DNA of 64,000 bases, taken from NCBI GenBank assembly GCA_965655095.1, contig OZ296651.1, forward strand, positions 32,984,001 through 33,048,000, given 5' to 3'. Below, in pieces: positions 38,620 to 41,600 of the stretch. The translations under genes and the position numbers were made by a program. This stretch comes from Haplodiscus bocki. Lineage: Eukaryota. The notes beneath the pieces are model-generated. The model searched no databases, was not told the origin of the DNA, and was given only the letters and a program-made list of their open reading frames with translations. Every line of letters begins with the position of its first letter. Positions within the stretch are counted from its first letter, which is position 1.

Positions 38620-41600
38620 GAGGAGGTGTTGAGCGGTGGCGTGCCTTTGATTGTCTGTGCTGCTGCCTTACAGACAGGGACATTTTTGGTCAGACAAGCG
38701 TTTTGGAAGAAGTGTTTTTATACGTGAGGATGCACTAGTAAGGACAGTGTCATTCAAAAGTGGAATGATGGTTTTGTTGAGGGTTGAAGTATCTATGGAA
38801 CAACCAGACGGTAAAAGAGGAATGACTTTTGGAGTTGCCCCAAATGGTCCATCAAGGAAAAAAAGGAGGGAACAGCAGTGTTGAACTAGTTTTTCGGGAT
38901 TTAACAGCTTCGGAAACTTGGGTAAAAGAAGACAAGGGGAATCATGTGACTAGCTTGGAAATGTCTACTCCTCCAGGGGCGCGGAGTAAGCATGAGTTTT
39001 GTCGTTGGCAACTGGTGGCGATGGAAAACTAGTATGCTGTGATCGTTAAAATACTGGGACCGAGCTTGAAACAGGGATTGGGCCAGCTGTGGCAGGACAA
39101 GACAAAATGGCCCCAGAGAAACAAGGATGACGCGTTGCAGTTGAAGGGTTGGATGGAATTTTTTTAGTGATGTCATTGGTGTGGGAGGTGTTTGCGTTGA
39201 AGGGAGGAAACCACCCGGAGGTTAGCGTCAAGGTTTCATGCGAACGTAGCGAACAGTCAACTTTCTACTGGTTTCTATCTCACAAGTTTTGTAAGTCATT
39301 TTACAGACGACTTGTGTGTATTGGTAAGGACCGCGCCACAAAGATTGAAGTTCAGGACTGAGTCCTTGAGGAGTTGAGGGAATATGGAGGAATCCCTAAA
39401 GTCTTCGTGACTGCTAGCTTGTGCGTTCAGAGTGGAGGGAATGTAAAATGTCTTGAACTAATGCAAGCGAAACGACATGTTGGTAGACCATTTGGCTGGT
39501 TTTGAGGTTTCCAGACTTCCGGCGAAGAATGCCGTGTCAGGTTGTTAGCTCGTCAAAGAGGTTCCAAAGCTTCCATACACGGCGAAGCAGAACCTCTAGG
39601 TAGGAACCGGGAGGATGAGAGCACTTGCGTAACCACGTCAGTAATTGACTGATTCCAATGTCTGTTGTTTGTGCTCTCTGCAGGTCTGTCGTTGTGTTGT
39701 GGTCACCAAGTCTGGTATCTTCCGGCGGAGTTTTGAGGCTAAAAGCTGTTAAATCGAAAGTAGAATCCCGAAAAATCTCTTGAGTTGTGTATTGTACTTC
39801 TGTCCAATCAAGTTAATCCAAACGTCGTGATAGATATCCAACAGGAAAACACAACTTGTTGATTCAGTAAAAACTCCTGTGATCCCGCAAGTCAAGTAAG
39901 GCTTTTCGCAGGAAGCGGTAAGTAGGTTTGTCAAAACAGCGCGGTTTGACAATCAAGTGAAATACAAACCTACCAGCAACCAAGTACTGTGCGTGCAATA
40001 CTTGTTGGTTATGTTCTTTTCCCATCGAAGAAGAACTTGGAAACTTTTATTTGATTTCTTTCGCGAGACTCGCCCCCAATTTGAAGTCAGCTAAAATACA
40101 ATAAGCTATTGCATGCGGAAAATCCTGCAAATCTCCATGCTGCTCCATAGTTGTAGTTTGTGAAACTGGTTCGTTTGCTCCGGCTTCGTGACCGTATTGG
40201 ACTTCAGGCTGCTGATCATCAGGTTGATTGCTTGCGCTTTTTCCAAATACGTTGCAGTTTCTAATTTCAGACTGCTCATGATCAATCTGATTGGTTTTCT
40301 TTGCTCCAATCTGATTGGTTTTCCTTGCTCCGACCTTGAGGCCGTTTCTCACTTCAGACTGTTCATCATCCGTTCGATTGATTTTACCAGTGGCCCCTGG
40401 TATGGTGGTGTTTTTTGACTGTTGTGCTGGTGGTGAGAGATTGTTTGAAGAAGGAAATGTACGTTGCAAGGAGGGATGCGTCTGCCCGTCGAAGCAAGTG
40501 TCAACGTTCATAGTTGCAGTCTGGTTGAGAGCTGCGGTTGAGGCCGGTGGTCGTAGCATACAGTCAGCATGTCGACTGCTTTTGCCGCTTTGCTGCTCAA
40601 TCTCATAATCAAAGGCAACGAGTTTTTCAAGCCAACGAGCAGTTAAAGCGTCTAAATCCTTCAATTTCTTGGGCCAATGGAGCACTCTGTGGTCCGTAAT
40701 GATCTTGAATTGTCGTCCCAGATGCTTGAAGTGTCTGGTGTAATTGACTTCATTTGAAAGTTCTCGTTTCGTTGTCAAGTAGCAACTTTGGGCTTTGTAT
40801 AGAGATTTGGAAGCGTAGCATGTGACTCGGTTTCGGTCATTCTGTACCTGGGCAACGACGGCGCCGATGTCAAACTGACTTTCATCATAATACAGGATGA
40901 ATGGTTGCTTCAGAGAGAGGAAGGCAAAAATGGGTGACGAAGTGAGGCAGTCTTTCAGTTGTTCAAAAGTCTGTTGTGTTTTTCACGTGCAATTGAATTT
41001 TTCCGTTTCTTCTTTTAGCTGGCAAGGATGTGAAGCAATTGCTGCAAAAATGCGAACATACCGTCGGGACTAGGAATAGAGTCCCCAAAAACTTTTCACT
41101 TCAGTAACTGATTTCGGTACTGGATACTGGCGCATATTTGATGTTTGAGCCGGATCGGTTTGAATTCCATCTCGACTGATTATGTGACCCAAGAAAAGTT
41201 TATGATGCCGGAAAACTCACAAATATGAAGGTTGATTTTCAACTTTGCGTCCTTGAAACGTTTGAAGACCTGTCGAAGTTTCACACTGGGTTCCTCAGTA
41301 GTGCAGGAAAAAAGAATGCAATCGTCTAAATATGGAATTGAGCTGTTCCACGCAAGGCTGACCGGATTTTTTCCATCCGAGGTTGGAAAACAAGAGAACT
41401 GCCCGGCAGACTTTTTGGCATGACGGGCGAGTTGAAAAATGGAGTACTGAATGCTGTATAATCTTGACTACTCGTTTTTAAAAAGAGCTAGTTGAAAGTC
41501 CATGACTTGTCGATAGTTGTGAATTAGCAAGTTCCTTCCAAACTTTCAAAAATTTCATCATTAGAAAACAGTAGCCAGCCAGGATTAACGGTTTGCTTGT

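Follow-up and report, generated by a model that had tools for sequence, protein, structure and literature searches.

A TARG1-type macrodomain set between the RNase H and the integrase of env-bearing Ty3/Gypsy elements of Haplodiscus bocki

Macrodomains are kept by viruses where PARPs restrict them, and the nsP3 macrodomains of alphaviruses and coronaviruses are virus-encoded ADP-ribose erasers directed against PARP defence. In cells, TARG1 (OARD1, C6orf130) reverses protein-, terminus- and thymidine-linked ADP-ribosylation (sections of PMC7050489 and PMC8501950). Its catalytic dyad is described in PMC7050489, where the acidic residue is written "Glu125"; the PDB sequence has Asp. The same section reports that the acidic partner is missing in DarG and that both residues are missing in SCO6735. 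TARG1-like homologues have been noted in viral genomes in a section of PMC4245714, an article whose accessible part holds no passage on transposons, and, according to a review (PMC4977317), macro domain proteins are encoded by some endogenous retroviruses of fish. A TARG1-type domain in a Gypsy pol was not described in the literature that we searched, with most subscription papers, Repbase and CDD lying outside that search, and word searches of PMC8672886, PMC5408684 and PMC12440569 returned no macrodomain passage. The locus described here lies in a window of 64,000 nucleotides from Haplodiscus bocki (contig OZ296651.1, positions 32,984,001 to 33,048,000), in which a preliminary description had proposed a TARG1/OARD1-like macrodomain inside pol.

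The element in which the domain resides is of the Ty3/Gypsy type, measures about 11.6 kb and has gag, pol, env and a fourth open reading frame (Table 1). LTRs, gag and the order protease, reverse transcriptase (RT), RNase H, integrase place it in this group, as does a match to Ty3 Gag-Pol (E 5e-60), and the flanking RNase H in the window matches Ty3 in a PDB search. By its sequence the third ORF is an F-type fusion protein, which makes the element an env-bearing Ty3/Gypsy member (an errantivirus in the broad sense); the sibling env also matches the PDB "fusion protein" 9W4C (E 1.4e-5). The window copy has lost about 280 integrase residues (zinc finger and core), deleted between 39417 and 39392, and its LTRs are only 75% identical over 532 columns, so the insertion is old. 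The segment before integrase is inferred from its position to occupy the place of a "mini" or N-terminal extended domain.

Table 1. Features of the element in the window (positions counted from the first letter of the window).
Feature	Position	Strand	Basis
3' LTR	33969..34571	-	
Accessory ORF remnant with C-terminal J (DnaJ) domain	34608..35726	-	sibling ORF, Pfam DnaJ E 4.6e-14
F-type env remnant	35927..38224	-	sibling ORF of 778 aa, Pfam Baculo_F E 1.8e-7
Integrase remnants: start of zinc-binding region, then C-terminal part	39174..39446	-	tblastn with sibling pol
Conserved pre-integrase segment	39447..39734	-	omega 0.21; 30-45% identity between families
TARG1/OARD1-type (ALC1-class) macrodomain, pseudogenised, 3 stops	39735..40157	-	phmmer against PDB
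Asp codon, equivalent of TARG1 Asp125	39816..39818	-	alignment; 27/29 stop-free siblings
Lys codon, equivalent of TARG1 Lys84	39945..39947	-	alignment; 29/29 stop-free siblings
Low-complexity, partly repeated linker, ~130 residues	40158..40556	-	repeats; omega 0.72
RNase H of pol	40557..40907	-	Pfam PF17917 and PF17919, E 1e-18
Protease, reverse transcriptase and connection region, disrupted by stop codons and frameshifts	40908..42813	-	sibling pol mapping
gag remnant	42792..43701	-	sibling ORF, Retrotrans_gag and CCHC zinc knuckle
5' LTR, alignable part	45099..45604 (end approximate)	-	

Several features of these elements and their surroundings were recorded alongside. The fourth ORF follows env in both families examined and combines a coiled-coil part with a J domain at its C-terminus (L052:3354-4637 and L062:2357-3457; Pfam E 4.6e-14 and 2.2e-8). 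Neither this ORF nor the F-type env had been mentioned in the preliminary description of the macrodomain. An Hsp70 co-chaperone domain is unusual within an LTR element, and word searches for "DnaJ" in the main text of PMC13524379 and the accessible text of PMC12440569 and PMC5408684 returned nothing. In both families the LTR ends in TATA rather than the usual CA (window; L053-L058, L061-L062), and 4-bp target-site duplications flank two young copies. One young copy apparently abuts another, with an LTR common to both (L051/L052; 1503 nt, 99.9%). The window also holds, at 1-2990 (+), the 3' part of a second, older copy of the window family (env end, J-domain ORF, LTR); the macrodomain of that copy is found some 4 kb ahead of the window start. 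Short ORFs at 29700-30500 (+) and 47400-50200 (-) resemble, by eye, what we presume to be remnants of Polinton-like capsid and protein-primed polymerase genes; four of them had no Pfam match.

The identity of the domain was assessed with phmmer against 177,635 PDB sequences, with X written at stops. A single minus-strand frame runs, without a frame change, from 40982 to 39429 through RNase H, low-complexity linker, macrodomain and integrase start, as the preliminary description had it, and residues 281-416 match TARG1/C6orf130 over almost its full length (E 2.7e-12). For a stop-free sibling the TARG1 match reaches E 1.7e-22 among seven PDB matches, which do not include SCO6735; the sibling's 150-aa domain aligns from residue 12 to 144 with 4J5Q 12-146, which amounts to full-length TARG1 homology. 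A DarG or SCO6735 type is ruled out by this search, in which DarG is matched much more weakly than TARG1. The catalytic motifs had been read from the window copy as HLIVK and RRLD: the Lys and Asp equivalents align with Lys84 and Asp125 (numbering counted along the 4J5Q alignment), and the quoted RRLD reflects decay, since the glycines of the G-x-G-L-D loop have been lost here. Among stop-free siblings, Gly precedes Leu-Asp in 28/29, as in TARG1. The window copy itself is dead, with in-domain stops whose first bases are 40049, 39866 and 39815 and another past the domain at 39539. The repeated character of the linker was likewise borne out, by a 24-nt direct repeat at 40283-40330 in the window and three TDDEQS-type repeats in one sibling. 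The feature has been overlooked because the Pfam Macro model (PF01661) often scores the domain below threshold: it found no match in the window copy and gave 17.2 bits for the stop-free sibling, under the gathering cut-off of 22 bits. A single-sequence structure model of the window family's own domain reached a pLDDT of 45, too low for use.

To what extent the domain belongs to the family, rather than to this copy, was examined across the genome. At the DNA level 42 matches were obtained from 40 scored candidates out of 315, and 37 of the matches, the window included, cover almost all of the RNase H-domain-integrase stretch. At the protein level, scoring 150 of 5,753 candidate places gave at least 151 matches, a figure that sets a minimum and should not be read as the number of copies. 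The preliminary description had named two outcomes that would speak against it, the lack of a macrodomain match and absence from other family members. TARG1 was matched in the PDB search, and the domain is present in all 19 sibling loci fetched, 15 of them without stop or frameshift inside it. A chance match or one-off insertion is ruled out by the TARG1 E value, by these siblings and by the presence of the domain in five families; a cellular gene beside the element is ruled out by two of the 19 siblings, in which the protease-to-integrase frame is open over the entire 4.5-kb locus. Additional families in the same genome have pol ORFs of about 1590-1650 aa. LTR pairs were compared in five young copies, four from the window family and one from a second family, and are 99.1-100% identical in every one, so that the families have been recently active. 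No RNA data set was listed as containing the element, which speaks neither for nor against its expression.

The macrodomain is under purifying selection, and the linker is near-neutral. In 29 of 30 family loci (the omitted locus had an in-domain stop), domain variants common to at least two copies comprise 20 synonymous and 13 nonsynonymous changes, giving an omega of 0.17 (p 7.5e-7 against neutrality), where omega is a simple variant count and not the product of a tree-based model. The corresponding values are 0.11 for RNase H, 0.15 for integrase, 0.72 for the linker and 0.91 for the integrase tail; domain singletons give 0.41. Identity between five families is 34-55% for the domain, 77-89% for RT and 17-33% for the linker. 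The 33 invariant domain columns, including Lys and Asp, gather in the ligand-binding and catalytic motifs.

Carriers beyond this genome were sought among 1.84 billion representatives, yielding 2,682 matches. Pfam scans of 58 longer matches identified seven with retroelement domains, in which the macrodomain sits at the RNase H-integrase junction, beside integrase or chromodomain, or next to protease. In P0090 and P0178 it adjoins protease, away from integrase. As a separate observation, the macrodomains of P0075 and P0090 come from within the window clade's domain group and lie just past protease in another element, from which it follows that the domain has moved between positions; the best matches of these two proteins in the Haplodiscus bocki genome are 44-51% identical. 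The order RNase H, linker, TARG1-like domain, integrase recurs in P0168 (Athalia rosae), P0207 (Neodiprion virginianus), P0206 and P0208-P0210. P0168 and P0207 are both titled "uncharacterized protein" in their records, and the earlier caution about novelty was apt, given that the same architecture sits unnamed among public insect protein predictions. Tandem TARG1-like domains occur within one bridge in P0168 and P0206.

Three divergent insect-type bridge domains, aligned alone, match TARG1 at E 5e-17 and show no RNase H match. The three most divergent insect-type copies retain Lys and Asp, and in some insect-type copies the ligand-binding motifs are partly gone. One divergent insect-type domain is similar to Macro clusters of the Atlas (0.92), reaches 59 bits where the best of 500 shuffles has 5.3, and has a predicted fold resembling TARG1 (pLDDT 66, TM 0.75). 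Single-protein scans of sequence collections found nothing. Within 81 metagenome and IMG/VR loci pulled by the insect-type alignment, a sample biased towards insect-type elements, 64 pols have both flanking domains; 3/64 carry a clear macrodomain in the bridge, and 61/64 show no macro match.

On the domain tree (152 rows, 147 columns, near-duplicate window-family fragments left out, many forks unresolved), all 19 rows of the window clade's domains group together (SH-aLRT 99) with the host TARG1-like gene outside, and recent capture from the host's present gene is not supported by this tree. A topology uniting the clade's domains with those of the insect type is not rejected (p-AU 0.145). The RT-RNase H tree (34 rows) separates window-clade carriers from insect-type carriers, and monophyly of carriers is rejected there (p-AU 0.0014; 0.022 with other insect-type rows added). 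Hence the domain was either acquired on more than one occasion or passed from one lineage to another. Elements with short bridges nest among insect-type carriers, which suggests that the domain can be lost. Judged by matches, variant counts and trees, the domain is real, under selection and recurrent across lineages.

In all five families a motif of small, hydrophobic, Asn/Gln and hydrophobic residues lies 11-13 residues past RNase H, a lead, as the motif was defined only after the sequences had been inspected; between the domain and the zinc finger of integrase, no motif of this form recurs at a position common to these families. The Ty3 RT construct 4OL8 ends just past the equivalent RNase H end, and Ty3 integrase bears an N-terminal extended domain (as described in part of PMC8632968). 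We infer that the linker starts with a candidate RT/integrase protease site. With such a site after RNase H and none shared before integrase, the mature product is predicted to be a macro-integrase fusion, with the domain on the integrase side.

Our preferred reading, to which we assign a probability of about 0.5, is that the domain, borne on integrase, may erase ADP-ribose and in this way counter host PARPs. A cellular TARG1-type macrodomain was captured into the RNase H-integrase junction by an ancestor of this env-bearing Ty3/Gypsy clade and has been kept under selection. Judged by sequence, it is produced as part of the Pol polyprotein, in whose frame it lies; it would probably stay after processing as an N-terminal extension of integrase, and would hence travel with the particle and pre-integration complex. 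There, as family knowledge suggests, a Lys/Asp ADP-ribosyl hydrolase could strip host-PARP ADP-ribose from element proteins, RNA or cDNA, by analogy with the alphavirus and coronavirus macrodomains that counter PARPs. Indirect support comes from the TARG1 match, the kept dyad, selection, recent activity, the candidate cleavage site, the second lineage and the host PARPs. The host genome, as context, has 31 PARP-domain matches, and four of five long ORFs examined are fusions of an SF1 (Upf1/ZNFX1-like) helicase with one or two PARP domains (L085-L088; G000 C12, C2, C5, C12; 1774-2243 aa), two of the four having the H-Y-E pattern. Counted against the eraser is that most Gypsy elements do without the domain, as in the 61/64 bridges. 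The kept dyad and purifying selection fit an ADP-ribose reader or DNA-end cleaning equally well.

DNA-end cleaning would be a housekeeping role, in which the hydrolase clears the ADP-ribose that DNA-repair PARPs leave at nicks, at cDNA ends and in the gap formed on integration, allowing both integration and repair to be completed. TARG1 does act on ADP-ribose phosphoesters at nucleic-acid termini (a section of PMC7050489), the predicted integrase fusion would place the domain suitably, and the element domains are rich in net Lys+Arg (an excess over Asp+Glu of 6-8 in four of five families and 4 in the fifth), with the host domain balanced. Such intermediates, however, face all LTR elements, yet the great majority of sampled pols lack the domain. 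Moreover, the host already has its own TARG1-like gene, a low-copy cellular gene in one open frame of 328 aa (L075:1483-2466, G000:C2:12306343-12307326; Pfam Macro 24.9 bits, N-terminal part unannotated) with one more match, at 72%, at C5:13821001. We therefore consider the housekeeping role unlikely.

A reader could instead tether the integrase complex to chromatin that is PARylated, open or damaged, in the manner of chromovirus chromodomains. The ALC1 class includes readers besides erasers (a section of PMC7050489), the domain is predicted to remain on integrase, and P0196 carries it C-terminal to an integrase chromodomain. A reader would have no need to keep both catalytic residues, yet these are invariant across five families, and the position beside protease in P0090 and P0178 also speaks against tethering, a role that we hold to be improbable, if credible. 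That the fold is a structural passenger, captured as spacer or scaffold between RT and integrase without ADP-ribose function, would suit its faster divergence between families (mean 48% identity, against 81% for RT and 66% for integrase) and the motif losses in some insect-type copies, but the clustering of invariant columns in ligand-binding and catalytic motifs and an omega equal to that of integrase make it very unlikely.

A wider proposal concerns the bridge of insect errantiviruses. In most of them it is described as an RNase H-like fold of five strands, the second and third of which have changed places (Chary and Hayashi, PMC13524379, main text), with tandem "pseudo-RNase H" domains tabulated for seven beetle elements (supplementary file 4). 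Compared with macrodomain profiles, six short bridges gave hhalign probabilities of 0.7-3.5%, none significant; against the insect macro set they scored 15.8, no better than 40 column shuffles, of which the highest gave 16.6, and they had no Atlas match (0.79) and no PDB match. We take these six to be of the Drosophila type, and the idea that a Drosophila-type bridge is a macrodomain is without sequence support from hhalign, Atlas or PDB. The swapped strand order fits a macrodomain core, the position within pol agrees as well, and tandem copies are likewise present in P0168 and P0206. Tentatively, ADP-ribosylation might be an unrecognised front between hosts and animal LTR retroelements, with helicase-PARPs set against an integrase repeatedly armed with TARG1-type erasers, and "pseudo-RNase H" might be wholly or largely macrodomain or its relic. 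We regard this wider proposal as possible though doubtful; if true, the domain would rank with the most widely distributed accessory domains of endogenous retroviruses to have escaped notice. The present finding suggests that one structural class of bridge domain in insect endogenous retroviruses may have been misread as RNase H-like. That a TARG1-type domain with its catalytic residues intact is under selection in the pol of several active families of Gypsy elements, and is carried by a second, separate RT lineage, is indirect evidence that ADP-ribosylation acts on invertebrate retrotransposons, and hints that hosts may use ADP-ribose tags against them, a question made testable through one small domain.

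Compared with known systems, the element domain is closest to human TARG1 (4J5Q, 4J5R, 2L8R), with which it shares a full-length colinear match and the kept Lys84 and Asp125 positions; unlike TARG1 it is embedded in a retroelement polyprotein and forms its own clade. The DarG macrodomain (5M31, 5M3I) is likewise of the ALC1 class and shares the catalytic lysine (a section of PMC7050489), but is matched by the sibling only at E 0.006 and 0.19, and the acidic partner is present in the element domain. The ORFs of the element are gag, pol, env and the J-domain ORF, with no DarT-like toxin partner among them. The alphavirus and coronavirus nsP3 macrodomains differ in being of the MacroD class, with different catalysis (class from a section of PMC4245714), and in belonging to RNA viruses rather than retroelements. 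Teleost epsilon-like endogenous retroviruses resemble the present elements in that an LTR retroelement carries a macro domain (Basta et al. 2009, cited in PMC4977317), but by that review's description, the basis of the comparison, they are Retroviridae with macro domains as additional ORFs. Errantiviruses (PMC13524379) share the gag-pol-env order, an F-type env, young multi-copy families and a conserved segment before integrase. In contrast, a word search of that article's main text found no "macro", "ADP" or "DnaJ", its bridge domains being called "mini" or "pseudo-RNase H". The insect-type Gypsy pols have the same succession of RNase H, linker, TARG1-like domain and integrase, but they belong to another RT lineage, their domain abuts the integrase zinc finger without an intervening segment, and it is in tandem in two of six.
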